From Bacilli bacterium (lineage in GTDB: Bacteria > Bacillota_I > Bacilli_A > RF39 > UBA660): 64,000 nucleotides of DNA. Both the position numbers and the translations under genes were made by a program. The DNA lies in NCBI GenBank assembly GCA_016295795.1, contig JAEDKN010000003.1, positions 1,680 to 65,679 on the forward strand, given 5' to 3'. The stretch's first letter is position 1; each line of letters opens with the position of its first letter. The notes beneath the pieces are model-generated. The model made no database searches and was not told the origin of the DNA. It saw only the letters and a list, made by a program, of their open reading frames with translations. Below are positions 20,503 to 37,380 of the stretch, one piece after another.

Positions 20503-23379
20503 CTACTTTCTAATTTCTAAATGACCTTCTATAAAGGCATTAGGGTAAAGAAATTGCTTTTCGCCAGATTTAAAATTAACTTTAATATGAGTTCTTTTCA
20601 AATCTATCCATGAAACACTACCAATACCAAATGATTTATGTTCTACAAAAGATCCAATATCCAATTCATCTAAATCAGCTAATATTTGATTTTTTTCTTC
20701 TTCAGATATTTTAGGAATTTCTTTCTTCGGTTCTTTACGCACATCAAATATCATATTTGTAACCTTTTCATGTTCTTCTTGTAATTCTTCAATTTCTTGA
20801 TCAGGTTCTATTTCATAATTCATAGAACTTTGTTGATTTACAAATAAACGTTCAAATTCTTCTTTTTTAATAATAGTATCCCATCCACCAATTTCATCAT
20901 CAGATGAATGTTTATTAATACCAGAATAAGATAAACTTGAATCTTCATATCTTTTAAATTTAAAGATAGCTTCATTCATTAAGCTTGAATTAAATACTCC
21001 AATACTACAAAGTATTTCAAAATCCTTTGTTGTTAAACCAGTAACTTTCTTAAATAATTCTGGTTCTAATTGTGTAATTACATCTTGAAGAGATCTTTCA
21101 CGATAGTCTGTTAAGTACATAAATACAGGAATTCTCGTTGCAAATTTAATTAATTTTTCTTGTATTTGTTTTCTCAATGATTTATTTTTCTTTTCTTCTT
21201 CATCAATCTCTTTCTTCTCTTTTTCTGTCAATTTTTCAACTTCAGCTTTGGCTTTCTTTATTTTTTCAGATTTATTAATAATCGTTTCAACTACGTTATT
21301 TCCTAAAGATCTAAAACCTTCAATATGCATTATTGCATCTAAAGCTTCTTTATTATCTATTAATCTTCTTAAAGTATCATTATCTACATTAACTAATAAA
21401 GCAGACTCCCATCTTCTAGCTAAAAGAGTTGCAGAAGTTCCAGACATAGCAATATCCAAAACATCTTGAGCACTAATTTGTCTCATTGAAGAACCATCGT
21501 AAGCTAATACCGGTAAGAAATTAATAAAGTTAGCTACACTTTTTTCAGGATTTGATTCATGTATATCTAATTGACAACTATAATCAGCTATTTCTTTTAA
21601 TGCACGATCTAACGAAAAATCAAATACATAACATTCTTGTTTCATTATTTCTTTTTCATTCTTATCATTTGTAATTTCCCATGGTGATTGACATCTAAAT
21701 GCTGTTTGAAAATATGTTTCTGGGCTTTTTAAATTTCTTAGCATAAATACAGCAGACCAAGGTCTAACAGTTACTCCAGTAGTTAATTTTCCACATGATA
21801 AAGTTATTGTTTTTGTCTTTAATGGATCATCCATTGCAGATTGAACTGGGTTCAACGCATCTAGACCAATTCCAGCTTTTGTTCCAGAACAATTTATTAT
21901 TTTATAATCATGGTAGAATGTATTTTGCTTTTGTTTTAACAATTCTTCCATTGCATCACATGAAGCAACATTTGGCATAAACCATAATGTATGTTGCAAA
22001 GCAGCCAATAATCTTGCATCAGAAAATGGCATTGGAGGTCTCTTATCTTGTCCTAATTTCAAATCATCTATACTTGATGGCAAATATGAACCTCTTATTA
22101 AATCCAACCATTTTTGAACTTCATTTTCATATTTAAATTTTGCAACACCATCAACTTTTTCAGCAGAAAAGAAAACGTTCAAGTCAAACTCATTAAATTC
22201 TCCTTGCATCGCAATTTGTCTTATGCTATCAGGAATTTTATACGTTAACATAACCATTCTAGGCAATGATAAATATGGATTATTTGAACCAATCCATTCT
22301 TGCTTAGCTGTTTGTTCATCAGAATAAGTCCAACTAAATATTTGCTCCTCAATAAACTCACCAGAGTTTATAGCTCTAAAAGGAGTACCAGATAAAAATA
22401 AATAATACTTCGTTGTTATTGGTAAAAAACTTTCATTAAATGCATTATCTGCCTCTTCTTTTTTATACTTTTCAACATCAAATTCTAATTCTGATTCTTC
22501 ATTTGTTACCTCAAATAATTTAGAAGCTTTTTCTCTCCAAGCACCATAATGATATTCATCAAAAATTACTAAATCCCAATTTTCGTTATGAATAAATTCA
22601 TTTTTTGCTTTAATTCCTCCATTATCATTAGTACCTAATAAATCTTGAAATGAACCGAATACAACAATAGGATTTGATTTATCAGCATTTTCATACATCT
22701 TATCTATACTTATTTGATTAAATTGTGCGTCTTTGTTGGAAATAAATTGCCAATTATCAAAATCTATATGAGTTAATAAATCTTCGGCCCACGCAGATTC
22801 AACAGCTGGTTTAAATGTTAAAATTAATATTCTTTTCAAATCCATTTTTTTAGCTAATTGATATGATGCAAAAGTCTTTCCAAATCTCATTTTTGCGTTC
22901 CATAAAAATTTTGGAGCAGAAACTGGATCATCAATTAAAGCTTCATTATAATACTCAATAGTTCTATTAACAGCTCTTACTTGCTCTGGTCTCATTTTAA
23001 AAGTATTAACTCTATCTTTTGAATATTTGACACCTGTTTTTAATTCTAAAATAGCATTTTTTACTTCATTTAAATCACACTTAAACCATTCATTTTTATC
23101 TATGTCAGAATTTAATTGTAATATTCCATTTCTTTTTAAAATCTTATGAACATCTTTATCAGTAAATACTGTTCCGTCACATCTTATTGATGATTCTGAA
23201 TATATAATTTTGTATGGTACAGCGCTAGTATGAAGTTGTTCTTGAATTCTCTCTTCAACAGCTCTTTCGGTATATCCTACTTTTATATAACCTTTATGTG
23301 ATTCAACACCAATCAATTCATAAACATATATAGTAGGATTAACATTTGGTCTGGAAGGAAAAAAATCAATTTGTTCCAT
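20503..23379 (-). CDS. T5orf172/GIY-YIG-like domain + SF2 (type III Res-like) helicase + C-terminal UvrD/PcrA-type Tudor-like domain
   Basis: N-terminal IYVYELIG...GYIKVGYTERAVEERIQEQ...NEWF (T5orf172-like). RFGKTF Walker A-like and FDEYHYGAW (DExH). C-terminal GSFVEHKSFGIGSVSWI...VNFKSGEKQFLYPNAF like the PcrA/UvrD C-terminal domain. Start set to the ATG at 23379 (TAATG overlap, SD GGAGGGG). Confidence 0.7.
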   Translation of the reverse strand: MEQIDFFPSRPNVNPTIYVYELIGVESHKGYIKVGYTERAVEERIQEQLHTSAVPYKIIYSESSIRCDGTVFTDKDVHKILKRNGILQLNSDIDKNEWFKCDLNEVKNAILELKTGVKYSKDRVNTFKMRPEQVRAVNRTIEYYNEALIDDPVSAPKFLWNAKMRFGKTFASYQLAKKMDLKRILILTFKPAVESAWAEDLLTHIDFDNWQFISNKDAQFNQISIDKMYENADKSNPIVVFGSFQDLLGTNDNGGIKAKNEFIHNENWDLVIFDEYHYGAWREKASKLFEVTNEESELEFDVEKYKKEEADNAFNESFLPITTKYYLFLSGTPFRAINSGEFIEEQIFSWTYSDEQTAKQEWIGSNNPYLSLPRMVMLTYKIPDSIRQIAMQGEFNEFDLNVFFSAEKVDGVAKFKYENEVQKWLDLIRGSYLPSSIDDLKLGQDKRPPMPFSDARLLAALQHTLWFMPNVASCDAMEELLKQKQNTFYHDYKIINCSGTKAGIGLDALNPVQSAMDDPLKTKTITLSCGKLTTGVTVRPWSAVFMLRNLKSPETYFQTAFRCQSPWEITNDKNEKEIMKQECYVFDFSLDRALKEIADYSCQLDIHESNPEKSVANFINFLPVLAYDGSSMRQISAQDVLDIAMSGTSATLLARRWESALLVNVDNDTLRRLIDNKEALDAIMHIEGFRSLGNNVVETIINKSEKIKKAKAEVEKLTEKEKKEIDEEEKKNKSLRKQIQEKLIKFATRIPVFMYLTDYRERSLQDVITQLEPELFKKVTGLTTKDFEILCSIGVFNSSLMNEAIFKFKRYEDSSLSYSGINKHSSDDEIGGWDTIIKKEEFERLFVNQQSSMNYEIEPDQEIEELQEEHEKVTNMIFDVRKEPKKEIPKISEEEKNQILADLDELDIGSFVEHKSFGIGSVSWIDLKRTHIKVNFKSGEKQFLYPNAFIEGHLEIRK

Positions 23380-24902
23380 TATTCTTCCCCTCCATCCCAT
23401 GGTTTAATCATCGATTCAATAAAAGTAATTTCCTCATCATTTAAAGAAAATTTTTCATATAACTTTTTATCATTCCATTCTTCTTTAAAGTCCAATAATG
23501 GAACAAAGCAAAATTTATCTCTTGTAATATTCATTGATGTTAAAGCTTGCAATAATAAGAATCTAGCAAATTTTGTATGAAGATAATTCTCCAAATTTTG
23601 TGCTTCAATAATATTGTCATATTCTCCAACACATAAGTAAGATTCTGTACAAACATATTTAGGTTCTAAAAGAGCTACTTTAGCCAAAACCTTTACTTGA
23701 CCGTTTTCATCTGTTTCTCCAATATGTCCAGATAAAGCTTTACCTATAATAACCTTATATTTGTCTATTAAATTTTTTCCAGTAGTAACTTTTTCTTCTT
23801 CAATATATGAATTACCTTTACTAGATACTAAGAATAAATCATTATCTTGAAATTCTTCATGACCTCTTTCAAAAGAATCTAATCCAAATGGCTTTCTTGA
23901 TGTAATTATTTCAGATAACATCTTATATCCACTATCATTGATTTTATGAATAATCGATAAAGCATCATTATATCGTATAAATAATTCAAATTCATTTAAT
24001 TTACGATTTTGAACTATTCTATCTTTTCCTATAACATTAGTAAATTCACAATCACCATTATATTGTTTATCCCATAAGAAATACATTACACCACCACTTA
24101 TATTATTAGATGGGAAGCAATCTTTAGCATTAGGATAATCAACTATTTTAGAAAATCTTCTGTCATTTAAAGTTTCTTCTCTAAAAGCATCTAAACCTTT
24201 TCCTCCGGCAAACCATCGTGAAGGAATAATCATCGATAAGTATCGAGGTTGTAATTTAATAGCTTGGCTTATAAATAATTGATATATAGGTTTTGCACTA
24301 GATCCATTTCCACCATCTGATAATTGATATGGTGGATTTCCAATAATAACGTCAAATTTCATATTAAATATCTCCTCAACTTTCTTAGTGTGTATAAATT
24401 CATATGCGTGAGTTTCTAAATCTTCTGTTCTATTATATTGAAGTTTAGATGCACCGCAATAATAACATTTGTCACCAACCCATGAGTGATTAACTTTTTT
24501 AAATCTAATATTTCCCTCAGAATTGTCGAATTTTGCAATTGAATATTCGCCATTTGGCCATTTAGAACAATAAACACTTCTTCTAGATACCAAACTTGTT
24601 AATTCAGTTATTGATATTCCATATAATTGTTTTTTAAAGATATGTTCAATTCTTTCATCTAAATCAGGAATTTGATTTTCAAGACCAACAATTAATCTTT
24701 TAGCAATTTCTCTTAGGAAAACGCCGGTTTTACATGCAGGATCTAAAAAAGTAGTATCTGGATTTTTAAATAATTCTTGAGGTAACAAATCTAACATAGC
24801 ATTTACCACATCAGGTGTAGTAAAAACCTCATCATTCGATAAATTTGCTAAACAAGATAACACATCTGGATTATATAAATTTTCTAATAAACCATTATTC
24901 AT
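23379..24902 (-). CDS. N6-adenine DNA methyltransferase (Eco57I/TaqI-like gamma class) with C-terminal specificity region
   Basis: Motif X TTPDVVNAMLDL, motif I FLDPACKTGVFL, motif IV VIIGNPPYQ; ~250-aa C-terminal TRD-like part. Confidence 0.8.
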   Translation of the reverse strand: MNNGLLENLYNPDVLSCLANLSNDEVFTTPDVVNAMLDLLPQELFKNPDTTFLDPACKTGVFLREIAKRLIVGLENQIPDLDERIEHIFKKQLYGISITELTSLVSRRSVYCSKWPNGEYSIAKFDNSEGNIRFKKVNHSWVGDKCYYCGASKLQYNRTEDLETHAYEFIHTKKVEEIFNMKFDVIIGNPPYQLSDGGNGSSAKPIYQLFISQAIKLQPRYLSMIIPSRWFAGGKGLDAFREETLNDRRFSKIVDYPNAKDCFPSNNISGGVMYFLWDKQYNGDCEFTNVIGKDRIVQNRKLNEFELFIRYNDALSIIHKINDSGYKMLSEIITSRKPFGLDSFERGHEEFQDNDLFLVSSKGNSYIEEEKVTTGKNLIDKYKVIIGKALSGHIGETDENGQVKVLAKVALLEPKYVCTESYLCVGEYDNIIEAQNLENYLHTKFARFLLLQALTSMNITRDKFCFVPLLDFKEEWNDKKLYEKFSLNDEEITFIESMIKPWDGGEE

Positions 24903-24903
24903 A

Positions 24904-25554
24904 TTAATTAATTCCTCCTAAATTTCTATAATGAGCTATATATTGCTTTAAAAATTTTCCGTTTTTTTCATTATCGGAAAGTAAAGATAATTGTGATTCA
25001 TCCTTGTTTACTAGTTCATCAAAAGTATAATCTTTTCTTTGCATTCTTGCATCATTAAATGGGAAAGTCCACTCCGAAAAAACTATAGGATCACTTATAT
25101 CATTTCCATTCTCGTCAACTTTTAACAATGTTAGTGCATTTCCACAAACTATATTTTTACTTAATATATATTTTGCTGAATTAACTGTTTGTTCATTATA
25201 ATCTTTTTTACAATTTTTTTTATATGTCCTATCCCACAAATCGAAAAGTCTATCTCTACATGTTATTACATTATCATTCAAAAGTTCTACACCATATAAA
25301 CTCCCAATAGCTAACAATGAAAATCTTTCAAAATCATAACTACTTTTTTTATACTTTTTCTCAACAATAGTCAATTTTCGTTTTAATATTTCAATTAAAA
25401 AATTTCCATCACCACATGCAGGCTCCAAAAACCTAGAATCAATTCTTTCAGTTTCTTGCAATACAAGATCACACATAGCATTTACTTCTCTTTCATTTGT
25501 AAATACTTCTCCGTGGTCTGCTACTCTTTCTTTAGACTTAACTTGTTTTCCCAT
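24904..25554 (-). CDS. Methyltransferase-like protein with the SAM-binding half only (no NPPY motif)
   Basis: GEVFTNEREVNAMCDL (motif X), FLEPACGDGNFL (motif I), NIVCGNAL. Ends before any (D/N)PP(Y/F). Start trimmed to the ATG at 25554 (SD GGGGTGAG). Confidence 0.55.
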   Translation of the reverse strand: MGKQVKSKERVADHGEVFTNEREVNAMCDLVLQETERIDSRFLEPACGDGNFLIEILKRKLTIVEKKYKKSSYDFERFSLLAIGSLYGVELLNDNVITCRDRLFDLWDRTYKKNCKKDYNEQTVNSAKYILSKNIVCGNALTLLKVDENGNDISDPIVFSEWTFPFNDARMQRKDYTFDELVNKDESQLSLLSDNEKNGKFLKQYIAHYRNLGGIN

Positions 25555-25647
25555 AAACTCACCCCAATTCAAGTTTTATATCACGTGTTTATTATAACAC
25601 ATAAATACAATTTTCCCTATAACTTTAAGGAAATTACACAATTATAA

Positions 25648-25714
25648 TCCCACATTTGTACCCCTTTTAGTACCCATAAATGAACCTTGCATAAAACTAC
25701 TAAAATGATACAAT
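25648..25714 (+). promoter_or_regulatory. Promoter/operator module R1 (rightward, toward xis-int)
   Basis: TTGCAT (25687-25692) -16 nt- TACAAT (25709-25714). Upstream GTACCCCTTTTAGTACCC and ATGAACC. Inverted homolog of 19975-20060. Confidence 0.45.
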
Positions 25715-25742
25715 ATTATAAACTAGAGAAAATTGTATATAA

Positions 25743-25768
25743 GAAAGGAATTACTCCTTTCTTTTTTT
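25743..25768 (+). terminator. Intrinsic terminator in the xis-int leader
   Basis: GAAAGGA-attac-TCCTTTC followed by TTTTTTT. Lies between the R1 promoter and the xis SD. Confidence 0.6.
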
Positions 25769-25784
25769 GTTGGGAGGAATGAAT

Positions 25785-26015
25785 ATGTCTATTGAGGAAA
25801 CAATTAATCTATTAAAAAAACAATGGTGTTCTATCGAAGATCTAATGAAATTAGCACAAGTTAGTAGAACTAAGGCTTATAACATTAAAAATGATATTAG
25901 TGAAAATTTAGAAGAACAAGGATTTAAATTACCATTAGGTTTATTACCTATGATAGAAGTCGTTAAATATCTAAGAATTGATTTAGATTACTTGGAAAGA
26001 ATGTCAAAACTATAA
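25785..26015 (+). CDS. Excisionase-like small HTH protein
   Basis: 76 aa immediately upstream of the integrase. WCSIEDLMKLAQVSRTKAYNIKNDI is HTH-like. Start at the ATG 6 nt after GGGAGGA. Confidence 0.55.
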   Translation: MSIEETINLLKKQWCSIEDLMKLAQVSRTKAYNIKNDISENLEEQGFKLPLGLLPMIEVVKYLRIDLDYLERMSKL

Positions 26016-26136
26016 TTTGCCTATTGCATGAGATGAGAGGCAAAATGATTTTGAAATTTTAATATTTTGTGCTATGGTGGAGTTGTCAAAAGATTGGCTA
26101 ACAAAACTTTAAGCAGAAAATCAAGGAGGATGAAAT

Positions 26137-27270
26137 ATGTCTGTTAAACAAGTAAAAAAAGAGTTAGCCACTAAAGACGGTAGACGTTGGATATTTTATA
26201 TTAGAGCCGAAGATAATATGGGAATAAAGAAAAAGTATAATTCAAAGAAATATATGACTAGAAAAGAAGCCGAAGAAGCTGAAAAAGAGTTTAAAATTAA
26301 GATGGCTAAAAAAGAATTAAATCTATCTGACATGACTTTTAAAGATCTTTGGGAAGAATTTTATGATTATAAAATGGATAAGGTTAAGAAAAATACATTA
26401 TATGGTTACAGAAAAAATATATGTAGATTAGAATACTTTATGAAAATTAAAATCAAAGACCTATCAATACAAGATTATCTTTTTTGGAGAAGTACAATAG
26501 TTAAATTACCATTAGCGGTTAAAACAAAAAATGGATATTATAAACTATTAAAAGCTATTTTAAACTATGGAGTTAAATGGCACGATTTCAATTTTACGAG
26601 TATATATAATAAAATGGAAAAGTTCACTGATCCTAATGGTATGGTAAAAGAAATGAAATTCTATACACCAGAAGAATTTAAAAAATTTATTTCTTGTGAA
26701 GATGAACTTCAATTCATTACTTTCTTTAAGACATTATATTTTTGTGGATTAAGAATTGGAGAAATATCTGCTCTAACTTGGGAAGATATAGATTTAGATA
26801 AACATACTATAACTATAAATAAAAGTTTATCTTATATTGAAGGAGAATATTATACTTCTAGACCTAAAACTAAAAACAGTATAAGAACATTACCAATGCC
26901 TAACTCTTTATATGAAGATTATGTTAAATTTTATGAAGAATCAAAAAAATATTATAATTTCAAAAATTCATGGTACGTATTTGGTCAAACAAAACCTTTC
27001 AGTGGTGAGTATTTAAGAAAAAGAAAAAGAAGAATAGCTGATGAAGCTGGAGTTAAACAAATAAGAATACATGATTTTAGGCATAGTTGTGCTTCATTAC
27101 TCATTAATAATGGTGCTAATGTTATGGTTGTAGCAAAATATCTTGGCCATGCTAAAATTGATGTAACATTAAATACCTACTCTCATCTATTCAATAATAA
27201 GATGGAAGATATAGTTAACTTAGTTGATAAAGTGTACACAGAAGAACAAACTGAGACTGATATGAACTAA
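26137..27270 (+). CDS. int: Tyrosine site-specific integrase
   Basis: GLRIGEISALTWEDID (Arg I), IRIHDFRHSCASLL (HxxR), LGHAKIDVTLNTYSHL (His/Tyr). N-terminal SAM-like domain. Confidence 0.9.
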   Translation: MSVKQVKKELATKDGRRWIFYIRAEDNMGIKKKYNSKKYMTRKEAEEAEKEFKIKMAKKELNLSDMTFKDLWEEFYDYKMDKVKKNTLYGYRKNICRLEYFMKIKIKDLSIQDYLFWRSTIVKLPLAVKTKNGYYKLLKAILNYGVKWHDFNFTSIYNKMEKFTDPNGMVKEMKFYTPEEFKKFISCEDELQFITFFKTLYFCGLRIGEISALTWEDIDLDKHTITINKSLSYIEGEYYTSRPKTKNSIRTLPMPNSLYEDYVKFYEESKKYYNFKNSWYVFGQTKPFSGEYLRKRKRRIADEAGVKQIRIHDFRHSCASLLINNGANVMVVAKYLGHAKIDVTLNTYSHLFNNKMEDIVNLVDKVYTEEQTETDMN

Positions 27271-27853: not shown

Positions 27854-29731
27854 TTAATTATTAATTCTTTTTAGATAATCTTGCATTCCTTTATCTACAC
27901 AGTAAACATAACAACCTTTCATACCTCTAGTCATTAATGTTCTATAGGTATTTTTTATTATGTTATCAGCAATTTTATTAGCTACTTCTTCGCCTTGTTC
28001 ATTAGCAATCTTCTTAATACCATTTAATGACGTATCTGTTTTAGCACGCTTAGTATAATCTGTTACTATATGACCATCTTCATATCTTAAATCATCACCA
28101 ATTATAACACCAACATAATCAAATTCTAATCCTTGACATGTATGAATGCAACCAACTTCATTAACTGATTCAGCATCAATTGCCCATGTAGTTGAATTTC
28201 CTAAATTCCAACTCATTCCAAAATTAAACTCAGGTATTTCTATATCATGAATTTCAGTATTATTTTTACCTTCACTAATCCAGTTCCAACAATAACCTGC
28301 TACTATTCTTGATTTATTATTTTCTTTGTTTTTTTCTTCAATTAATCTTCGAACTTCATTAGGATCATCTAATACTCTAAAGTCATAATCAAATCCATCT
28401 ATATCAAAATTAGCAGTATCTTTAATATCTAATACTCTATCTAACCATGCAATATACCCATCTGATCCATTACATCTAAATTGACTATCTAAATCAAATG
28501 TATAAATACCTGCTCCTGCTTCATTAGCAAACTTTTTAATTAAATCTTCACTACCAATATCTTTTAAAGTAACTTTTTGATTTTCATCTATAAAGAATAC
28601 AGAAAACTTAGCAGCATTTATAATTTCTTTAATTTGATTTTCACCTTTATTTTGAAACATACCAGATTTAGCATTTAATCTATGAGCTTCATCAACAACT
28701 AAACAATCTAGTTTATTTCTTTCTTCATCTATAAAACTTCCTGAACCTTGGAATAAGTGATTAATATATGTTTGAGTAAAATCTCCTCTTAATTTAGAAG
28801 AATATACACTTCTAGGTGCTGCATTTTTAGTAACATAAAAACAAGTCATATTTCTATTATTTAATTCAACTAATAAATTAACTGCAAGTACTGATTTTCC
28901 TGTACCAGGTCCACCTCTTACTATCATTACATTTTTTTCATTTCTAGATACTGTATCAATAGCATTTCTTAAAGCATATTCATAGACAATTTTTTGATTA
29001 TCAATCATATAGAATTCTCTATTACCTTTTAACATATTTCTTAAAGAATCTTGCAACATTTTAGATGGTCTAATTCTTCCATGATCTATCTCATATAGGA
29101 TATTACCATCATCACCAGTTTCAATATATTTTTTAATAAAATTTCTTAAATTAACAACATCATTATGTCCAAATAATGGCGCTTTATCAGTATATTCTTT
29201 ATATGTATTACTTTTTAATGTATCATCTTCTTCAAAATAATAATTATGAAGATATGCACATGGCACGACATTGATATCTTTTAATTGTACAGCTTCATTA
29301 TAATCTTTAATTAAATTAGCATAAGTCATAGCTTGATATGAAGGATGATTAACATCTCTCATTCCACCACCAGTATAAGTATTTACCTTATAAATACCAT
29401 CCATTTCTCCTACTTCAGTAGCTTTATCCCATTGTTTTAATTCTATTATAACAACATTTGATTTATCTTTATTGTAACCAGACATCATAAAATCGATTCT
29501 ACAACCAGTTGGAGGTATATTATATTCAATAGCTATACCAGTATTATTAGGTATTTCAGAATCACTTAAAACACCTCTCATATATTGCATAGAATTTTTC
29601 CACGAATTAAACTCTGGTACACTAGGTCTTTTCTTTACTACTTCAATATATTTATTTCTTATTTTATCAGCAATTATTCCTAAATCTACATCATCAATAA
29701 ATCCTGATTTAATTCCTTCATATACTAACAT
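27854..29731 (-). CDS. PD-(D/E)xK-like nuclease domain + DUF2075 P-loop ATPase/helicase-like protein
   Basis: N-terminal CRIDFMMSG...VVIIELKQW (D...ExK). GGPGTGKS Walker A, VVDEAHRL Walker B. C-terminal GVIIGDDL...YRTLMTRGMKGCYVY typical of DUF2075. Start at the ATG at 29731 (SD GAGGAG). Confidence 0.75.
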   Translation of the reverse strand: MLVYEGIKSGFIDDVDLGIIADKIRNKYIEVVKKRPSVPEFNSWKNSMQYMRGVLSDSEIPNNTGIAIEYNIPPTGCRIDFMMSGYNKDKSNVVIIELKQWDKATEVGEMDGIYKVNTYTGGGMRDVNHPSYQAMTYANLIKDYNEAVQLKDINVVPCAYLHNYYFEEDDTLKSNTYKEYTDKAPLFGHNDVVNLRNFIKKYIETGDDGNILYEIDHGRIRPSKMLQDSLRNMLKGNREFYMIDNQKIVYEYALRNAIDTVSRNEKNVMIVRGGPGTGKSVLAVNLLVELNNRNMTCFYVTKNAAPRSVYSSKLRGDFTQTYINHLFQGSGSFIDEERNKLDCLVVDEAHRLNAKSGMFQNKGENQIKEIINAAKFSVFFIDENQKVTLKDIGSEDLIKKFANEAGAGIYTFDLDSQFRCNGSDGYIAWLDRVLDIKDTANFDIDGFDYDFRVLDDPNEVRRLIEEKNKENNKSRIVAGYCWNWISEGKNNTEIHDIEIPEFNFGMSWNLGNSTTWAIDAESVNEVGCIHTCQGLEFDYVGVIIGDDLRYEDGHIVTDYTKRAKTDTSLNGIKKIANEQGEEVANKIADNIIKNTYRTLMTRGMKGCYVYCVDKGMQDYLKRINN

Positions 29732-29735
29732 AAAT

Positions 29736-30335
29736 TTACTCCTCACTTAAATACAAATTAGCTTGATATTGCATAGCATATATAACATTTATTATTATTT
29801 CTAAAAAATTAATAATTTGCTTAGCATCAGTTTCATTAAAAATAACTATTTCATGTGTTGCCTCATTACCTTTGTTTCTAATTATATCAACCCAACTTTT
29901 ACAATTTTTAGGAATATAATTATTTTTATCTAAAAAATCTACATATTCAATAAACTTTTTACCTTCTTCCGCTCCACAATCCACTGCAATATGCATCAAT
30001 AATTTACGAGCAGATAAAACACATGACGAAAATGCTGAAGCTTTATAGCAATTTCTAACTTCATCATATAAATGAAAAGTCTTTTCATCAGGAAATATCT
30101 TTTCAGAAAAACTTTTTCCATATTTATACATTGGAACTTGATTGTTCCAATCGATATAAGTTGGATAGTTACAATTATGGCATATATAAATATATCCTCG
30201 TTTATTTGGTTTACCAGAACTACTCCAATCTGTTAAGTAGTAACCTACATTAGAACTTATTTTTTCGCCGCAATATCCACATATAAAACTTTTACTGTCT
30301 AACTCAGAAGTATTTTTCCAATAAATTCCATTCAT
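29736..30335 (-). CDS. Zn-ribbon + DUF4145 domain protein
   Basis: CGYCGEK...CHNCNYP (CxxC...CxxC). C-terminal SARKLLMHIA...WVDIIRNKGNEATHE matches the DUF4145 R..GN...H signature. Start at the ATG at 30335 (SD AGGTGA). Confidence 0.65.
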   Translation of the reverse strand: MNGIYWKNTSELDSKSFICGYCGEKISSNVGYYLTDWSSSGKPNKRGYIYICHNCNYPTYIDWNNQVPMYKYGKSFSEKIFPDEKTFHLYDEVRNCYKASAFSSCVLSARKLLMHIAVDCGAEEGKKFIEYVDFLDKNNYIPKNCKSWVDIIRNKGNEATHEIVIFNETDAKQIINFLEIIINVIYAMQYQANLYLSEE

Positions 30336-30344
30336 ATATATCAC

Positions 30345-30659
30345 CTACAATTTATTATATTTTGTGCTATTACCTTTCGCTTTTTCTATTTCATATTTTT
30401 TAGCATTCTTTTTATATTTATCTAAAACTATTTGTTCTAAATCAACATCAAGTTTTTCAGCTAACATAATACAATAAGCTTGAACATCTGCTAATTCTTC
30501 AACTAATTCTTGTTTATCAAATTCATTATTCCATTGAAAACATTCTAATAATTCTCCTGCTTCAATAGAAATAGATTTAGCAAGATTTTCTGGAGTATGA
30601 AATTGACTCCAATCTCTTTCTTTATTAAATTCATCTATTACTCTTTTTGCTTCATTCAT
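30345..30659 (-). CDS. MazG-like nucleoside-triphosphate pyrophosphohydrolase (small all-alpha dCTPase/YpjD type)
   Basis: 104 aa. RDWSQFHTPENLAKSISIEAGELLECFQW and EELADVQAYCIMLA (EExxE/D metal-binding pairs). Confidence 0.8.
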   Translation of the reverse strand: MNEAKRVIDEFNKERDWSQFHTPENLAKSISIEAGELLECFQWNNEFDKQELVEELADVQAYCIMLAEKLDVDLEQIVLDKYKKNAKKYEIEKAKGNSTKYNKL

Positions 30660-30686
30660 AAGTAACACCTCTATATATATTTTAAC

Positions 30687-30710
30687 ATAAAAAAGCTAAT
30701 TTCTTAGCTT
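30687..30710 (-). terminator. Weak hairpin + U-tract overlapping the NUDIX stop (possible partial terminator)
   Basis: Minus strand AAGCTAA-gaaa-TTAGCTT followed by TTTTAT. Followed by TGtTAAAAT (rc 30679-30687), an extended -10-like sequence. Confidence 0.35.
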
Positions 30711-31090
30711 TCATTAGTAATTTTTTCTACAAAATATATATCTGCAGGAGCAAATTCATAATTTTCAAATTCTTCTTTTGTAATCCATGCAATTTGTTCA
30801 TGTTCTAAGACATCATAAGATTCTCCTATCATAGAACATTTAAGAACAATTAAATTTATTGTTTTATCTGGATATTCATATATTTTTTTATCAAAATATC
30901 CATCACAAATAATATTCATATTTAGTTCTTCTTTTATTTCTCTCACAATAGCATCTTCTTTACTTTCATTTTTTTCTATTTTACCTCCAGGAAATTCCCA
31001 TAAACCTCCTTGAGATTTTTTTAGACTTCTTTGTGCAATTAATATTTTCCCTTCTTTATTTGTTATTATTGCTGCTACTACATCTATCAT
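30704..31090 (-). CDS. NUDIX hydrolase (MutT/NudG-like (d)NTP pyrophosphohydrolase)
   Basis: NUDIX box GGKIEKNESKEDAIVREIKEELN. ATG overlaps the helicase stop (TAATG). Confidence 0.85.
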   Translation of the reverse strand: MIDVVAAIITNKEGKILIAQRSLKKSQGGLWEFPGGKIEKNESKEDAIVREIKEELNMNIICDGYFDKKIYEYPDKTINLIVLKCSMIGESYDVLEHEQIAWITKEEFENYEFAPADIYFVEKITNES

Positions 31091-33840
31091 TAATCTTTCA
31101 CCTTTTCTGGTATTTCAAAATCTAAATGATATTCTTCTGGTACTTCATTATCCAAAATAATATCAAATAATAAAGTTTGATGCTTAACTCCATTTTCTTC
31201 AGTAAATGAACTTCTTTCATTAGTAAATGTTCCTAATCCAAAATAAGTATAAGGAAGTGTTACTGAATCTTCACTTTCCATTTTTCTAATAAATAAGTGA
31301 ACTTTTTTTGAATTTCTTAAATGTTCTTTTTCACTTTCAGATATATTAGCTATACTTTCCCATTGGAATGTAGAATCATTTATAAATTTATCTTTATAAT
31401 TTAATTTACCTTCTTGATCTTTTTTTATTCCTGCAAATATATATGCTATATCATCTTTATAATAAGTACCTTTTTGAAGAATACCATTTTTTAACATAAT
31501 TCGAGATGCTTGTTCCTTATAATAGTTTCTATATAATTTAAACAAACCTTCATATTCTCCAAATTCTCTATTATATCTTGTTATACCATAATTTAATACA
31601 TCTTCTAAATATCTAATAAATTCTTTATTAGATTTATTAAAATACCATTCTCCATTTTCATTAACGATATTTAAAGACACTAAATTATCATATGCGTTTT
31701 TCAATGTTAAGTTAGTAATATGACTATTGATACCTTCTAATCTTTTTAAATCTATTTTATCTTCTTTTAACATTTGATTAATAATTAAATACTCATCTAA
31801 TCTGGCAATTGGTAATAAATCTTCTATTTTATTAATAATATCTATTTCTATGTCATTAAACATAGGAATGTTTTCTTCTCCTATTTTCAATAAAAAATTG
31901 TAATAAGATTTATTCTTAGAATTATTTAGTGATGATTTTATTATTCTTATTAAATCAGGTGCAACATCTGAATTTAAGAAATCCATATGTGTTGGATATG
32001 TTCCGCTATTTATATAAGATTTAAAATTTTGATAATCTTTTTCTAAAAAAACTTTAGAATTAAAATTAGTCTTATCTATATAATTCAATATTTCTTCTTT
32101 TGATAATTCATCAATATCAATAACAACATTAGGTATATCTAATGATTTAAAATCACTTCTAATCATTTGTTTTAAATATGCTTTTTCCATATAAGTTGTT
32201 TTTCCTAATGTTCCTAATGCTAATGCAATTTGAACTGCTCTATCATAATTATTTCCGATAAAATCTAATACAGTAACATATTCTTTACCTGGATATTTTC
32301 TTAAACCTCTACCTAATTGTTGAATAAATATTGTTTGAGATTCAGTTGGTCTTAAGAATAAAACCATATTAACTTGTGGTATATCAACACCTTCATTAAG
32401 AATATCTACAGTACAAATAATTTCTAACGGATTATTATCATCTTGTAAATCTCTAAATGCTTTCATTCTTATTCCAGTATCATTAATTCCTGTTAATGAT
32501 ATTGTTTGATATCCTTCTTCAAATAGTTCTTCAGCCATTAATTTAGAACTTTGAATATTGGTACAAAACGCTATACATTTTAATTTTTCATTTGGTTTTC
32601 TATGTTTTTCAATTTGTTCTTTAATAAATTCAATATTCTCTTGATTTGCTATTTGATTAGCAATTACCATTTTATCCTTTGAATTATAATCAACTAGTTG
32701 ATCTCTTATTCCATAATAATGAAATGGAACAACTAAATCATTGCTAATAGCATCTCTTAATCTTAATTCAAACGGAACATTTTGATCAAATAATCCAAAT
32801 ATATCTTGATTATCCATTCTCTCAGGAGTAGCTGTTAATCCTAACATAAATTCAGGTTTAAAGAATTCAAATATCTTCTTACCTGTATTTGCAACTATAT
32901 GATGTACTTCATCATATATAATATAGTCAAATTCTTCAGGACTAAATTCTTCAATATGTTTAGCTAACATTGTATTAGTTGCAAAAACAAAATCAGCATC
33001 CAAACTTTTTTCATTTCCAGTAAAGAATCCATAAGTTCTCTCAGCACCAAATACTGTTATAAATGAATCTCTAGCATCTTTCAAAATTGTTTCTCTATGA
33101 ACAATATATAGTAATCTTTTAGCACCAAAATTTCTTACATCAAAAGCTGCTAGATATGTTTTTCCGGAACCAGTAGCACTTATAATAAGCGATCTTTTAA
33201 TTCCCATATTTCTATATCTTCTTAATTCCCTTAAAGCTTTTCTTTGCATAGAATTTGGATTAATTGTTGTATCAGATATATTTATATAATCCATATCCCA
33301 TCTTTCAATAGCGTAATCCAATTGTAATTTATATTTTTCAATAAGACTATTTTCTAAAGGTAAAGTTTCTTTCCATAAATAAACAAAATCTTCCATAGCT
33401 TGATTATATGATTCCATTTTTTCTTTTGAATAAAGTGATACATTCCACTCTACATTTTTTAATAAAGCAAATCTTGTTATATTTGTCGAACCTACAATAA
33501 ATTCATAAGAATCCTCATATTCAAACAAATAACCTTTCGAATGAAATCCATTATCTCCAAAACATTCATAATCTAAATGACATTCAAAATGAGGATATTT
33601 ACTTTGTAAATTCATAAAGTATTCCAAAGAAGCAATATCTGTAAAATTTTGATATGTAGAAGTAATTAATTTTCCCTTCACTCCTCTTTCTAAAGCTTCT
33701 TCTAATTCCCTTTCAAATAGAATTAATCCTGCTTTTTTTATAAAACTAACAGAAAAAGAAAATGAATCACATTTTTTTAAACTATCAATTATTTTGTTCA
33801 AAAACATTTGGTCTTTATTTGTTAAAAATAAATCTTTCAT
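31090..33840 (-). CDS. PLD(HKD)-family nuclease domain + SF2 helicase + DUF3427-type C-terminal domain
   Basis: HSKGYLF...IVGSTNIT (HxK...GSxN). SATGSGKT Walker A, YDEVHH (DExH), helicase C motifs (QQLGRGLR). ~300-aa C-terminal region as in DUF3427 proteins. Confidence 0.8.
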   Translation of the reverse strand: MKDLFLTNKDQMFLNKIIDSLKKCDSFSFSVSFIKKAGLILFERELEEALERGVKGKLITSTYQNFTDIASLEYFMNLQSKYPHFECHLDYECFGDNGFHSKGYLFEYEDSYEFIVGSTNITRFALLKNVEWNVSLYSKEKMESYNQAMEDFVYLWKETLPLENSLIEKYKLQLDYAIERWDMDYINISDTTINPNSMQRKALRELRRYRNMGIKRSLIISATGSGKTYLAAFDVRNFGAKRLLYIVHRETILKDARDSFITVFGAERTYGFFTGNEKSLDADFVFATNTMLAKHIEEFSPEEFDYIIYDEVHHIVANTGKKIFEFFKPEFMLGLTATPERMDNQDIFGLFDQNVPFELRLRDAISNDLVVPFHYYGIRDQLVDYNSKDKMVIANQIANQENIEFIKEQIEKHRKPNEKLKCIAFCTNIQSSKLMAEELFEEGYQTISLTGINDTGIRMKAFRDLQDDNNPLEIICTVDILNEGVDIPQVNMVLFLRPTESQTIFIQQLGRGLRKYPGKEYVTVLDFIGNNYDRAVQIALALGTLGKTTYMEKAYLKQMIRSDFKSLDIPNVVIDIDELSKEEILNYIDKTNFNSKVFLEKDYQNFKSYINSGTYPTHMDFLNSDVAPDLIRIIKSSLNNSKNKSYYNFLLKIGEENIPMFNDIEIDIINKIEDLLPIARLDEYLIINQMLKEDKIDLKRLEGINSHITNLTLKNAYDNLVSLNIVNENGEWYFNKSNKEFIRYLEDVLNYGITRYNREFGEYEGLFKLYRNYYKEQASRIMLKNGILQKGTYYKDDIAYIFAGIKKDQEGKLNYKDKFINDSTFQWESIANISESEKEHLRNSKKVHLFIRKMESEDSVTLPYTYFGLGTFTNERSSFTEENGVKHQTLLFDIILDNEVPEEYHLDFEIPEKVKD

Positions 33841-34008
33841 ATAATCATCTCACTCAATTAAATTATACCAGAATGTATACTTTTAAACTAGATCTCTAAG
33901 GAATTTTTAATATTTAATTTTAACCTATCTAATGAAAAGAAAAAGAATTATTGATTATAGTTATATATATTGTAAAAAAGAATCTAAAAACAAAGATGCC
34001 TTATTCCG

Positions 34009-35418
34009 TTAAAGACCTAGAGCATCTATTTTTCGTTTACTTGCACTTTCTTTTTTTCTACCATCCACTTCAATTAATTCAATTTTAGTGTTCTTATATT
34101 TTTGCATAGCATTTTTAAAATTAGTTACTCTTTGATCGTGGTCACCTAAATCTATAAATAAATATATTCCTTTTTCTATTTCTTCTTGAGCCATATATAC
34201 TGGAATTTGCACCTCATAACAATGTGATAATTGATTATTAGAAGATTTTTTTATTTCAACTATAGTTTTATTTTTATAGCCAGAGCTAATTTTAAAATCT
34301 ACAGGACCGCTACCATTATTATTTTCTCTACTAATATCTATATCATTTGCTTTACAATATGAATCTGCTATTCCAAAAAAAAGATTTTGACTATGCGATT
34401 CACTTAATACTAAACCATTATCATCATATAATGATTTCCATAGCCCCTTTTCCTCAATTAAATATTTAAATTGATTACAAATTTTTTTAGTCAATTCATA
34501 AACATCTATATTTTTATCGATATTTAAAGGATTTTCTCTTACATAATCTTTAGATATATAATACCATTTTATTTCACCATTTTTATCTACCGAAAAATCA
34601 TATGATTCAATTTCATCTTCTCTATATTTTTCCAGAAAAGATTCAAAAAATTTTTCGTTACCCATAAACAATCTTTTAAATTCCTTCTTTGTATATTTTT
34701 TTCTTTTATTAGATGTGTTTAAATAACTAGAAAACTCTCTTCTTATTTTTTCATTAAAAGAAGAAACATAATCAATATCACTAAAATCTTCAGCAATTGG
34801 TAAATCTAGCAATAATTCTCTATCTATTACAAGTATTGGCTGATTATTATACTCATTTTTTGGTAGTTTATACACTTTATCTTTATATTTATAATCTTCT
34901 TTTTTTACTTCAAAATTAGAAAAAATATATTCTGAATACAGATAGATATTTTCCTTAATACTATTTAATATAATATCGCTTATCCTGTCACTTCCTATGC
35001 CTTTTTCAAATACACACATCACTTCAAAAATTTCCGGAAAATCTTTTTCTATATCTACAAATTCTTTTACAACTAGAATAATTTTTTCTGCTATTTCTTC
35101 CGATATACCTGAGCCTCTATCACTTTTCCTAGCATAACCTAATGATAAACCTTTTTCTTCTTTAGAAACTAATCTTTTAACCGCTTCATTCCAGTATCTA
35201 TCATTTTTGCTTTTCGAAGTTTTTAATAGTCTTAAAATTATACTAAACTGTTCCAAAATATTGTCATAACATCTCTTAAAATACTCATTTGTTGTCCTTT
35301 TTAATAACATAGGTGAAACAAATAATTTTGAATTTATATCCAAGAAGCTATCAAACGCACCTAATCCATCATATTTTTTCTTATCTATTTCTAAATAATC
35401 TGTAATAGTTATAGCCAT
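34009..35418 (-). CDS. Hypothetical protein with a C-terminal PD-(D/E)xK nuclease-like motif
   Basis: SESHSQNLF...GPVDFKIS...TIVEIKKS (E...D...ExK spacing). ~340-aa N-terminal region with no motif recognised. Start trimmed to the ATG at 35418 (the track extension runs through the upstream terminator). Confidence 0.55.
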   Translation of the reverse strand: MAITITDYLEIDKKKYDGLGAFDSFLDINSKLFVSPMLLKRTTNEYFKRCYDNILEQFSIILRLLKTSKSKNDRYWNEAVKRLVSKEEKGLSLGYARKSDRGSGISEEIAEKIILVVKEFVDIEKDFPEIFEVMCVFEKGIGSDRISDIILNSIKENIYLYSEYIFSNFEVKKEDYKYKDKVYKLPKNEYNNQPILVIDRELLLDLPIAEDFSDIDYVSSFNEKIRREFSSYLNTSNKRKKYTKKEFKRLFMGNEKFFESFLEKYREDEIESYDFSVDKNGEIKWYYISKDYVRENPLNIDKNIDVYELTKKICNQFKYLIEEKGLWKSLYDDNGLVLSESHSQNLFFGIADSYCKANDIDISRENNNGSGPVDFKISSGYKNKTIVEIKKSSNNQLSHCYEVQIPVYMAQEEIEKGIYLFIDLGDHDQRVTNFKNAMQKYKNTKIELIEVDGRKKESASKRKIDALGL

Positions 35419-35440
35419 ATTTACACACCCTTTCCTACTA

Positions 35441-35483
35441 AAAAACACCAATACAACACTTGTTAATCAAGTTTGTACTGGTG
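35441..35483 (-). terminator. Intrinsic terminator after the ATPase-RloB operon
   Basis: Minus strand CACCAGTACAAACTTG-attaa-CAAGTGTTGTATTGGTG followed by TTTTT. Confidence 0.6.
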
Positions 35484-35518
35484 CCTTATTACTTCTTAAC
35501 TTATTTAGAGAATTATCA

Positions 35519-36130
35519 TTAATTATTTAGATTATTAAATTCATCAATTGCATCTAATATTTTATATATACTAGTATGTGGATTTGAACTTAATAAAACT
35601 TCTTTATTCTTAATAATTTGTTGTTCAAAAGACTGGGCAGTACTCCTTGCATTATCTGTTGAATCTTTAATTATTTTATACATATCCATACTTTCTGTAT
35701 ATGTACCATTTAAATTTTGTAATTCCCTTTTTACATCTTTACTTGTTTGAAACTTTAATTTATTGTTTCGATAATGCATTACATACCATATTTCAAAAGT
35801 TGGAGCTGATGTAACTATTTCTATATTATTTTCAATGCATTCTTGTTCTATTTCTTTTATTTCACTTATTCGTCTTTCATCTAAATCTGTATCTAGTACT
35901 AAGAAAATTCTACAATTATCTTCTGAAGCAATATCTTCATTACGAATATATTTTAGTAAATCTTCTAACATTCCTTTAGGATCAGTACTATTTCCTGTAG
36001 AGAACTGAATTCTTAAATTTCTATTAGAATGATTTCTAAAATAATAATATTCTGAAGATTTTTTACCACCCTCTGAACAAATAACAATTAAGGGCTTTTT
36101 CTTGCTTTGTCTTAATTGTCTTCTAGCCAT
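35519..36130 (-). CDS. RloB-like (TOPRIM-related) protein
   Basis: PLIVICSEGGKKSSEYYYF resembles the RloB N-terminal EG..TE..YF motif. Overlaps the ATPase gene end by 19 nt. Confidence 0.6.
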   Translation of the reverse strand: MARRQLRQSKKKPLIVICSEGGKKSSEYYYFRNHSNRNLRIQFSTGNSTDPKGMLEDLLKYIRNEDIASEDNCRIFLVLDTDLDERRISEIKEIEQECIENNIEIVTSAPTFEIWYVMHYRNNKLKFQTSKDVKRELQNLNGTYTESMDMYKIIKDSTDNARSTAQSFEQQIIKNKEVLLSSNPHTSIYKILDAIDEFNNLNN

Positions 36131-37380
36131 AAATCAATATCTCTTATAAATGGAATTGCTCCGTATCTGCCATTTATATAACCTTTTTGTATATTTTCAT
36201 CTTTTCTAACTGAGAACGAATCAAGTGGATATAAATCTGATGCAGCTGTTTTTGAATCTTTTTCTGTAAACCATATTTGATCCCTTCTAAACAACTCTAA
36301 GCTTAATAAATTTATAGCATGAGTAGTAAATATTAACTGACTATTAGATTTATTAATTTTTTTATTATTAAACATTTTAATTATATATTCTACTATAGCA
36401 GGATGCAAACTTTTTTCTAATTCATCTATTACTATAACTTTATTATTCTCAAACGCATACTTTAAGAATGGAGCTAGAAAGAACAAAATTCGAGTTCCTT
36501 CTGATTCTGATTCAAGTCCCATGCCTATATTAAATGTATTATTATTTTCATCAACAACTTCATGTATTAATTCAATTTTTACATTAGATACCATAGGTGT
36601 TCCTACTGTTTTAGCTGCAGGTGGAATAAACATGTTAACCATATTAGTATCCATTTCTTTTTCCTCATAACTAACATTCAAATCTTTAATAAAGATATCA
36701 AATTCTTTCAACATATTTAATGTAAATGTTTTAAGTTCACCATTATTACTATAATCAATTAAAACTTCTTTTGAAATACTATCAAACGAATTATATGTAT
36801 CAATGTAATTTACAAACCATAAATAAGCATCTTTTGTTTTTTCATAATTCCAATTTGTAGCAGTTGCTAAAAACAATTTGTTTTCAGTATTTTTAGATTC
36901 AATAGATTTTAGTTTAGATTCTTCTGTTTTTGGAAAAGTATATTCATTTGTATTTGTTCTTGTGAATATATTAGTAGGTTTTTGAGTATAGTAAGCATCT
37001 AATGATTCTGTATAAACTTTAGTAGCATCAGCACTAAATGCATATTTATACCTAATATTATTAGATATAAAATCGAATTCGAACTCACTAGGACTACCCA
37101 TAGTAAACGCATCGAACATAAACGAATTAATTATCGGCAATCTCATTCCTACAGTATTATTGTTAGAATTTCTAACAAATAAAATTGCAAATGTAAAAGC
37201 TTTTATTAAATTAGATTTACCTGAAGCATTTGCTCCATATATAGCAGCAGTTTTAAGTAAATCAACATTGTTAGTAGATATTATATTATCTAAATTTTCA
37301 TCACCATTACCTTTTTCCATAGATAATGTTACTTTATTTTTAAAAGATAAAAAGTTCTTAACACTAAATTCTATAAGCAT
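36112..37380 (-). CDS. AAA/ABC-type ATPase (AAA_15/AAA_21-like), partner of the RloB-like protein
   Basis: MLIEFSVKNFLSFK..., Walker A GANASGKSNL, Walker B VIVIDELEKSLHP, FTTHAINLL. Start at the ATG at 37380 (SD AGGAGGAG). Confidence 0.8.
   Translation of the reverse strand: MLIEFSVKNFLSFKNKVTLSMEKGNGDENLDNIISTNNVDLLKTAAIYGANASGKSNLIKAFTFAILFVRNSNNNTVGMRLPIINSFMFDAFTMGSPSEFEFDFISNNIRYKYAFSADATKVYTESLDAYYTQKPTNIFTRTNTNEYTFPKTEESKLKSIESKNTENKLFLATATNWNYEKTKDAYLWFVNYIDTYNSFDSISKEVLIDYSNNGELKTFTLNMLKEFDIFIKDLNVSYEEKEMDTNMVNMFIPPAAKTVGTPMVSNVKIELIHEVVDENNNTFNIGMGLESESEGTRILFFLAPFLKYAFENNKVIVIDELEKSLHPAIVEYIIKMFNNKKINKSNSQLIFTTHAINLLSLELFRRDQIWFTEKDSKTAASDLYPLDSFSVRKDENIQKGYINGRYGAIPFIRDIDLWLEDN

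Follow-up and report, generated by a model that had tools for sequence, protein, structure and literature searches.

A divergent SauUSI-family restriction enzyme and its NudG-like NUDIX partner: a possible sanitizer of modified dCTP

The SauUSI-NUDIX gene pair and its products

The window analyzed here is a 64,000-nucleotide stretch of contig JAEDKN010000003.1 from the Bacilli bacterium assembly GCA_016295795.1, with 25 to 30% GC and genes mainly on the minus strand. Two overlapping minus-strand genes are its main subject; they encode a 916-aa protein with a nuclease domain, a helicase core, and a DUF3427 region, and a 128-aa NUDIX hydrolase (Table 1). The pair is almost certainly a SauUSI-family type IV restriction enzyme with its NUDIX partner, and the locus is a divergent further member of the known SauUSI-NUDIX type, not a new system. 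For the partner we tentatively favor, at close to even chances, a protective role in which it would remove modified dCTP and so shield the host chromosome from the cell's own modification-dependent nuclease.

The junction of the two genes reads GAT TAA TG ATA (GATTAATGATAG), with the stop codon TAA at 31092-31090, the start codon ATG at 31090-31088, and one base common to both; a Shine-Dalgarno-like GGTGA lies just 5' of the NUDIX ATG. A first-pass annotation had described a PLD nuclease, an SF2 helicase, and DUF3427 in the 916-aa open reading frame (ORF), the NUDIX ORF, and the one-base TAATG overlap, all of which are borne out by the ORF coordinates and Pfam, and the motifs that it quoted (HSKGYLF, GSTNIT, the helicase DEVH, and the NUDIX box) are each found in the translations. 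It had called the NUDIX box canonical, which holds except for an N at the penultimate G, a position that also varies among the partner proteins. Its description of the large protein as giant was overstated, 916 aa being usual for SauUSI-type proteins (about 930 to 1000 aa).

Table 1. Positions in the window of the gene pair, its domains, the nearby sequence signals, and the adjoining module
Feature	Positions	Strand	Evidence and remarks
SauUSI-family type IV restriction enzyme gene (modification-dependent, ATP-dependent), 916 aa	31090..33840	-	PADLOC, PDB 7CLG, Pfam
PLD-type nuclease domain, aa 44-150	33391..33711	-	Pfam PLDc_2 36.9 bits (cutoff 27); H100-x-K102, G117-S-T-N120
SF2 helicase/translocase core, aa 193-514	32299..33264	-	Pfam ResIII 118.8 bits, Helicase_C 45.7 bits
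DUF3427 region, aa 674-905, predicted coupler and SRA-like modified-cytosine reader	31126..31821	-	Pfam 68.9 bits (cutoff 27.7)
NudG-like NUDIX hydrolase gene, 128 aa	30704..31090	-	Start overlaps SauUSI stop (TAATG); Pfam, PADLOC, NCBIfam, PDB
NUDIX box, aa 36-58 (GKIEKNESKEDAIVREIKEELNM)	30917..30985	-	Read from translation; E42, R50, E51, E54, E55 present; penultimate G is N
Candidate promoter of the pair, perfect extended -10 TGGTATAAT	33862..33870	-	Ends 21 nt upstream of SauUSI ATG; sequence only
Weak hairpin and short U run, spanning the stop codon of the NUDIX gene; may be a leaky terminator or mark a module boundary	30689..30711	-	-10 kcal/mol, z = -1.4
-10-like TGTTAAAAT in the NUDIX-MazG spacer	30679-30687	-	Hexamer ends ~6 nt before MazG Shine-Dalgarno motif
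DCTPP1-like MazG pyrophosphohydrolase gene, outside the SauUSI pair, first gene of next module	30345..30659	-	Pfam MazG-like PF12643, 70.2 bits
Zn-ribbon/DUF4145 gene (PD-T7-4-like), between MazG-like and DUF2075 genes	29736..30344	-	Pfam DUF4145; PADLOC PD-T7-4, E = 5e-8
PD-(D/E)xK-like N-terminus and Schlafen-group-3/DUF2075 helicase gene, partner of MazG-like	27854..29746	-	Pfam SLFN-g3_helicase, E = 5e-108

The 916-aa protein matches the PADLOC model mREase_IV PDLC03658 (E = 2.9e-117), and in a PDB sequence search its residues 4 to 902 align with residues 31 to 945 of SauUSI (7CLG_A, E = 2.9e-116). The two proteins share one domain order (PLD nuclease, SF2 ATPase, coupler, SRA-like reader) and can be aligned collinearly over their whole length, although they are distant homologues and the alignment contains many gaps. 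Within the translocase core, Pfam places ResIII/DEAD at aa 193 to 341 and Helicase_C at aa 407 to 514. Every catalytic motif of SauUSI is present in the window protein, HSKGYLF starting at H100, GSTNIT at 117, the Walker A motif GSGKT at 224, DEVH at 310, and QQLGRGLR at 507. When the window protein was aligned with 91 homologues (92 members in all), the nuclease residues H100, K102, and N120 were identical in 91/91, and the ATPase residues K227, D310, E311, H313, Q507, R511, and R514 were the same in 90 to 91 of the 91. H100 aligns with SauUSI H119, the residue altered in the published nuclease-dead mutant H119A (PMC7913695). We regard the window protein as a SauUSI homologue, predicted to be active but divergent.

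SauUSI of Staphylococcus aureus cuts S(5mC)NGS sites that carry 5-methylcytosine (5mC) or 5-hydroxymethylcytosine (5hmC) in an ATP-dependent reaction (PMC3141236, PMC7913695), and six residues of its modelled 5mC pocket are named in the structure paper (PMC7913695). In our alignment, SauUSI D858, W868, and F841 are kept as D817, W827, and F802, while I842 corresponds to A803, the methyl-contacting Y831 to T792, and the intercalating M829 to K790. The sites equivalent to Y831 and M829 are variable across the family (Y in 32, L in 29, V in 17, and T in 12 of the 91 homologues). The DUF3427 copy as a whole is divergent, scoring 68.9 bits versus 180 to 310 bits for most other members. The changes at Y831 and M829 bear on specificity, not on membership of the SauUSI family, and the sequence context and preferred modification of the window enzyme may differ from those of SauUSI.

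The 128-aa protein matches Pfam NUDIX_4 and NUDIX and, over its full length, the PADLOC model PDC-S07 (E = 3.9e-47). Its closest PDB relatives are 5X1X (E = 1.7e-25) and 2RRK, the Escherichia coli NudG protein (Orf135), a CTP/dCTP/5-methyl-dCTP pyrophosphohydrolase. The NCBIfam NudG model NF007834 ("pyrimidine (deoxy)nucleoside triphosphate diphosphatase") is among its top NUDIX matches with 111.5 bits; because this is under the equivalog cutoff of 156 bits, we file the protein as NudG-like and not as an orthologue. The MutT model TIGR00586 gives 90.6 bits, just below its cutoff of 97.9 bits. The window NUDIX has the same size as NudG and has the NUDIX box and the signature residues W-E-F, E-H, and A-P-A-D-I in common with it. 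The same signature residues are present in the closest structural relative, 5X1X, a 130-aa protein deposited as "Mutator mutT protein," for which our literature search turned up no paper; its 12 closest matches among the ORFs that we collected are SauUSI-linked NUDIX proteins, at up to 64% identity (locus L033).

Residues that discriminate NudG from MutT were compared in an alignment of 83 SauUSI-linked NUDIX proteins, the E. coli MutT sequence being checked against 1MUT. Position 31 is W in 77 of the 83, in NudG, and in the window protein (W31), versus L in MutT; position 97 is H in 80/83, in NudG, and in the window protein (H97), versus G in MutT; and positions 116 to 117 are A-D in 81 to 82 of the 83, in NudG, and in the window protein (A116-D117), versus A-N (N119) in MutT. 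In the two E. coli proteins, base choice depends on these positions, with D118 of NudG and N119 of MutT as determinants of specificity. The host genome contains six NUDIX genes, and the NudG signature occurs only in the SauUSI-linked copy and in none of the five paralogues. From these features we infer a NudG-type pyrimidine (d)NTP pyrophosphohydrolase. NudG itself has a kcat/Km of 1.3e6 M-1 s-1 for 5-methyl-dCTP versus 4.7e4 for CTP, an ~28-fold difference (PMC5158307).

Linkage of NUDIX genes to SauUSI homologues

A conserved MutT/NUDIX-like gene linked to sauUSI was reported in 2011, when at least 60 SauUSI-like genes were found to be so linked and the function of the gene was left to be examined (Xu et al. 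2011, PMC3141236). When nudix was deleted in S. aureus Newman, the strain did not become transformable as a sauUSI deletion strain does (Monk et al. 2012, PMC3312211), and the cutting, ATPase stimulation, and translocation of SauUSI were characterized on that protein alone (Tumuluri et al. 2021, PMC7913695). In a 2020 comparative study, a figure legend labels small genes beside SauUSI homologues as MutT homologues. A literature search for a function of the SauUSI-linked NUDIX returned only the 2011 and 2012 remarks and this legend. The pair is thus no uncharacterized system, since the large protein belongs to the SauUSI family (PADLOC, 7CLG) and the NUDIX linkage has been in print since 2011 (PMC3141236). 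In S. aureus as in the window, the restriction gene directly adjoins a small NUDIX gene of the MutT/NudG-like kind, but this gene lies upstream in the former and downstream, overlapping the stop codon, in the latter, whose host is an uncultured organism with a 1.1-Mb, 27% GC genome of the gut type.

Two samples were used to survey the linkage. In the first, obtained by scanning a single genome of each species for a sequence pattern and comprising 38 SauUSI loci, a NUDIX homologue adjoins the SauUSI homologue in 31/38. The second, less biased than the pattern scan, comprises 399 scored genomes drawn evenly from the phylum of the host, with NUDIX homologues called at E <= 1e-12. DUF3427 is present in 69 of these genomes and the window-type NUDIX in 85; 65 genomes have both, 20 have the NUDIX without DUF3427, 4 have DUF3427 without the NUDIX, and 310 have neither (odds ratio 252, Fisher p = 1.7e-51). 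Among the NUDIX matches, 58/90 adjoin a DUF3427 gene. Flanks were retrieved for 68 DUF3427 matches; the match in the window itself and, in one genome, a second fragment were left out. The SauUSI ORF is full length in 63 of the flanked loci, and 53 of these 63 have a NUDIX neighbor, within 300 nt in 51.

The NUDIX gene lies downstream on the same strand in 29 loci (536 nt away in one), upstream on the same strand in 9, downstream and convergent in 13 (391 nt away in one), and upstream and divergent in 1; in the last locus, L103, it is fused to SauUSI. There, a single ORF of 1100 aa (L103:2602-5904, genome G239) has the architecture PLDc_2-ResIII-Helicase_C-DUF3427-NUDIX_4, with NUDIX_4 at residues 976 to 1098. 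Co-directional pairs almost always abut or overlap, 41 of 44 in the two samples combined being within 20 nt. The neighborhood survey proposed with the first-pass annotation is thus answered in its favor, NUDIX adjacency of DUF3427 homologues being conserved (53/63 loci, 65/69 genomes), and its view of the nuclease-helicase and NUDIX as a functional unit stands, since the adjacency survives changes of order and strand and, in one case, has become a gene fusion.

The five SauUSI genes most similar to that of the window are 77 to 80% identical to it. In four of them the NUDIX gene is upstream and its product 40 to 45% identical to the window NUDIX, and in the fifth (L003) the NUDIX gene is downstream and its product 60% identical. 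The NUDIX partner has thus been moved or replaced, and the pairing itself was kept. In the family to which the host belongs, DUF3427 is found in none of 16 listed genomes and a NUDIX match (E <= 1e-12) in one; the lack of DUF3427 there fits horizontal acquisition. Four loci with DUF3427 and no full SauUSI ORF (L072, L093, L109, and L135) were considered as a different architecture, which we rejected: they are truncated, disrupted, or contig-end copies, with the NUDIX still present.

In genomes without DUF3427, three NUDIX homologues stand beside SauUSI-like proteins that give no DUF3427 match at E <= 1e-10 (L137, L141, and L153; one of them is fragmented), and two stand beside NOV_C proteins. 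The remaining unlinked homologues have mixed or housekeeping neighbors (ABC transporters, HD phosphohydrolases, mfd), so this NUDIX subfamily is not exclusive to SauUSI. Across L136 to L166, four or five NudG-like NUDIX genes adjoin genes for HD + HD_assoc_2 phosphohydrolases and two adjoin mfd, which suggests that the unlinked NudG-like genes belong to the housekeeping of the nucleotide pool. One SauUSI-linked NUDIX (L074:6349-7353, 334 aa) has a thioredoxin-like domain fused at its C terminus.

A possible role for the NUDIX partner

Enzymes of the SauUSI type recognize a modified cytosine that is flipped out, translocate at the expense of ATP, and cleave through a PLD dimer (PMC7913695). In the scheme that we propose for the window pair, the SRA-like reader in the DUF3427 region would likewise recognize a flipped-out modified cytosine of the 5mC or 5hmC class, its recognition would activate the SF2 translocase, and modified foreign DNA would be cut by a dimer of the PLD nuclease. 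Modified nucleotides would come from methylated or phage DNA that is degraded and salvaged; the NUDIX would convert 5-substituted dCTP to the monophosphate, and the replicative polymerase would thereby be kept from writing the target mark of the nuclease into the host chromosome. In this scheme the NUDIX would serve self-protection and would not act as a cofactor in cleavage. 5-Methyl-dCTP enters DNA as dCTP does, with degraded methylated DNA as its main source (PMC10742078), and mammalian DCTPP1 (RS21-C6; PDB 2A3Q, 6SQW, 7MU5), a sanitizer of 5-modified dCTP, is described as keeping methylated dCTP out of mammalian DNA (PMC13291643). DCTPP1 is thus credited with the role that we propose for the NUDIX, but it is homologous to the MazG-like neighbor and not to the NUDIX, and in the bacterium that MazG-like protein is paired with a DUF2075 nuclease-helicase.

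The host genome encodes two adjacent C5 DNA methyltransferases (328 and 378 aa; contig C50:3375-5484), and the need for sanitation would be greater in this host because they are a standing source of 5-methyl-dCMP. Either the methylated sites of the host must escape the SauUSI homologue, or contig C50 is a strain variant within the metagenome-assembled genome. The GC content of C50, 26.7%, is the same as that of the genome. Near the methyltransferase genes we noticed, by eye, a 612-aa protein with a DUF262-like N terminus and an apparent phage-type integrase.

Several features of the linkage would be explained by a sanitizing NUDIX. Its dispensability for restriction would follow, and the intact restriction of the S. 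aureus nudix deletion is the behavior expected of a protective arm. Any orientation would serve, as the NUDIX need only share the cell with the nuclease, and one copy could be swapped for another. The presence of a DCTPP1-like enzyme beside the second nuclease-helicase of the window would be explained as well. The first-pass annotation had suggested that the nuclease needs, or is held in check by, the NUDIX; the second half of this suggestion would survive only indirectly, as the removal of a nucleotide that could make self DNA a substrate.

A number of observations weigh against the sanitizing role. Our literature search found no enzyme assay of any SauUSI-linked NUDIX, and the window NUDIX, besides falling below the NudG equivalog cutoff, also matches MutT models. 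NudG itself also hydrolyzes 2-OH-dATP and acts as an antimutator (PMC5158307). Exactly which modification the window enzyme reads is uncertain because the methyl-contacting Y831 is Thr here. An S. aureus nudix deletion mutant could be obtained, which shows that a SauUSI-positive cell does not die acutely when it loses the partner (PMC3312211). No NUDIX neighbor is found at 10 of the 63 intact SauUSI genes, and 4/69 DUF3427 genomes lack a window-type NUDIX altogether. Finally, the partner was seen with SauUSI-like enzymes only, in a survey built on DUF3427 and the window NUDIX; McrBC, Mrr, and other 5mC-dependent nucleases would be expected to have the same need.

The main rival, which we consider unlikely although the present data do not separate it from the sanitizing role, is that the NUDIX is a second offensive arm. 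It would hydrolyze modified dCTP made by a phage, such as the hydroxymethyl-dCTP of T-even-like phages, and either starve phage replication or force unmodified cytosine into phage DNA, while SauUSI would cut the DNA already modified. The evidence on specificity, namely the NudG-like signature and the conserved pairing, fits this equally. PADLOC lists the NUDIX family as a stand-alone defense candidate (PDC-S07), 21 of the 90 NUDIX homologues are in genomes without DUF3427, and the window gene is within a defense island with AbiL and other systems. Against this, the island enrichment of PDC-S07 is largely hitchhiking with SauUSI: catalogued as a single-gene candidate, the family accompanies a type IV restriction enzyme in the window and in the 58 of 90 sampled cases that are adjacent. 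Several unlinked homologues, moreover, are beside housekeeping genes such as those for mfd and HD phosphohydrolases. Phage dNTP synthesis is channeled, and the efficiency of a NudG-type enzyme would be modest against it. At best this efficiency is ~1e6 M-1 s-1 (PMC5158307). PDC-S07 is listed without a phage assay in PMC11514479, and we found no such assay in the literature beyond this listing.

A NUDIX that is required for the nuclease-helicase or directly regulates it, by binding or through a nucleotide cofactor or signal, as the first-pass annotation had it, is improbable. Coupled or abutting genes in 41 of the 44 co-directional pairs and the one natural fusion would agree with such a dependence, but 37 pairs are convergent and hence separately transcribed, and the partners of near-identical SauUSI genes are only 40 to 45% identical, which argues against a tight co-evolving interface. 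In S. aureus, the claim that the helicase needs the NUDIX is contradicted, as deletion of nudix did not relieve restriction (PMC3312211) and SauUSI could be studied alone for cutting, ATPase stimulation, and translocation (PMC7913695). The least probable reading by far, a housekeeping MutT-type antimutator beside the restriction gene by chance, has its MutT model match (TIGR00586, 90.6 versus 97.9 bits) and the mfd neighbors of some homologues in its favor, but the positions that discriminate MutT have NudG residues, the pattern in the host's family (DUF3427 in 0/16 and NUDIX in 1/16 listed genomes) is unlike that of a core gene, and chance adjacency is effectively refuted by the odds ratio of 252, the 53/63 adjacency, and the fusion.

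The adjoining MazG-DUF2075 module and the defense island

Downstream of the pair, the product of the MazG-like gene, which probably starts at the ATG at 30659 with AGAGGTG ahead of it, has mouse and human dCTP pyrophosphatase 1 as its closest solved relatives (E = 1e-17, PDB sequence search). Compared with the DCTPP1 pocket (PMC13291643), 8 of 10 residues are kept (F41, W47, F50, H51, W73, D98, Y102, and Y129), the changes being H38 to I and I101 to A, and the protein has the tryptophan sandwich, the His filter, and the metal-binding acidic residues of a DCTPP1-like all-alpha MazG enzyme. The DUF2075 helicase protein gives weak PADLOC matches to PDC-S41, AbiO, and Nhi. A MazG-like gene is immediately upstream of a DUF2075 helicase gene at L001, L069, L106, L114, L121, and L137, which come from different genera, and in none of these six loci is there a DUF4145 gene between the two. 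The MazG-like gene therefore belongs with DUF2075, and the DUF4145 gene of the window is an insertion; it looks like a defense gene inserted into another module. At L121 (1422-6292), a GIY-YIG nuclease is part of the DUF2075 helicase, and no NUDIX gene adjoins SauUSI. A literature search for DUF2075 with MazG found nothing.

Sequence signals between the two modules were examined as well. The 35-nt NUDIX-MazG spacer contains an 8-bp hairpin, AAAGCUAA GAAA UUAGCUUU, followed by UUU, which is no better than expected from shuffled sequence (20/200 shuffles fold as well), and no terminator passed a terminator scan, this hairpin included. Sites resembling a -10 element are rarer than in shuffles (35 found versus 57 expected), and a -10 consensus scan is uninformative in DNA of 25% GC. 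The hairpin with its U tract and the extended -10 that the first-pass annotation placed here are both present, but neither is above chance (z = -1.4; 35 versus 57 sites). An internal promoter or terminator in the spacer was rejected, the hairpin equaling shuffles, no terminator passing, and -10-like sites being commoner in shuffles. A better hairpin, of 10 bp and followed by U5 (z = -2.1), comes after the stop codon of the DUF2075 helicase gene. The sequence signals are compatible with one operon or two and do not decide between them.

It is unlikely that the five genes from 27854 to 33840 form one integrated system of interdependent pyrophosphohydrolases and nuclease-helicases. All five are co-directional with short gaps, the only strong hairpin follows the last gene, and a MazG-DUF2075 pair is next to or near SauUSI in seven other loci (L001, L069, L106, L114, L115, L121, and L137). 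However, 59 of the 63 sampled SauUSI loci have no MazG-like or DUF2075 gene beside SauUSI, the DUF4145 gene is present only in the window among related loci, and the order differs among close relatives, being NUDIX-SauUSI-MazG-DUF2075 at L001 and MazG-SauUSI-NUDIX, with the MazG-like gene directly preceding SauUSI, at L003. Islands of clustered defense systems are in any case common. Our preferred reading of the five genes is a pair of independent two-gene modules, which tend to travel together, and one inserted gene. The first-pass annotation had called NUDIX and MazG back to back unusual; they are not one odd design, as the NUDIX goes with SauUSI and the MazG-like gene with DUF2075, and the two pairs recur side by side. 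One feature is particular to this locus: a NudG-like and a DCTPP1-like gene are neighbors, and each stands next to a nuclease-helicase of its own. We know of no linkage of NudG to a type IV enzyme in E. coli.

The defense island (27854-37422) is between a tyrosine integrase gene (26137-27270, plus strand) and recG (37902-39893), with the gene for pyruvate:ferredoxin oxidoreductase (40172-43588) on the recG side. With the integrase on one side and these two genes on the other, the defense genes sit between an integrase and core genes. Between AbiL and SauUSI, a stand-alone gene (34009-35451) encodes a 480-aa protein that has no Pfam or NCBIfam match and gives weak PADLOC matches to PDC-M36A in its N-terminal half and to Cas4 in its C-terminal PD-(D/E)xK-like region. 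Immediately upstream of it are the overlapping genes (35519-37422) for AbiLii (RloB-like, 203 aa) and AbiLi (AAA_21 ATPase, 436 aa). The region from 20503 to 27270 encodes a protein with T5orf172 and a ResIII helicase (965 aa), an Eco57I-type methyltransferase (507 aa), and an MmeI_Mtase-like protein (222 aa), and ends with the integrase.

The locus itself adds little beyond another copy of a known pair; what is useful in it is the DCTPP1-like gene alongside and the fact that the two modules repeatedly occur together. In staphylococci, SauUSI is one of the main obstacles to gene transfer, and its NUDIX companion was already described in 2011. If the NUDIX is a sanitizer of 5-methyl- and 5-hydroxymethyl-dCTP, this would explain how cells safely keep an enzyme that shreds DNA carrying a mark that polymerases insert freely from the nucleotide pool, and it would also explain the enrichment in defense islands of PDC-S07, a "single-gene" candidate in PADLOC. 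It is tempting, though doubtful as yet, to generalize that modification-dependent nucleases as a rule carry a nucleotide-pool arm for the distinction of self from non-self and that the island stacks two such pairs, SauUSI with its NudG-like NUDIX and the PD-(D/E)xK-DUF2075 nuclease-helicase with its DCTPP1-like MazG protein. Were this rule true, the DUF2075 enzyme would likewise be a restriction enzyme dependent on modified cytosine, and sanitation of the pool would do for type IV enzymes what the protective methyltransferase does in classical restriction-modification systems.

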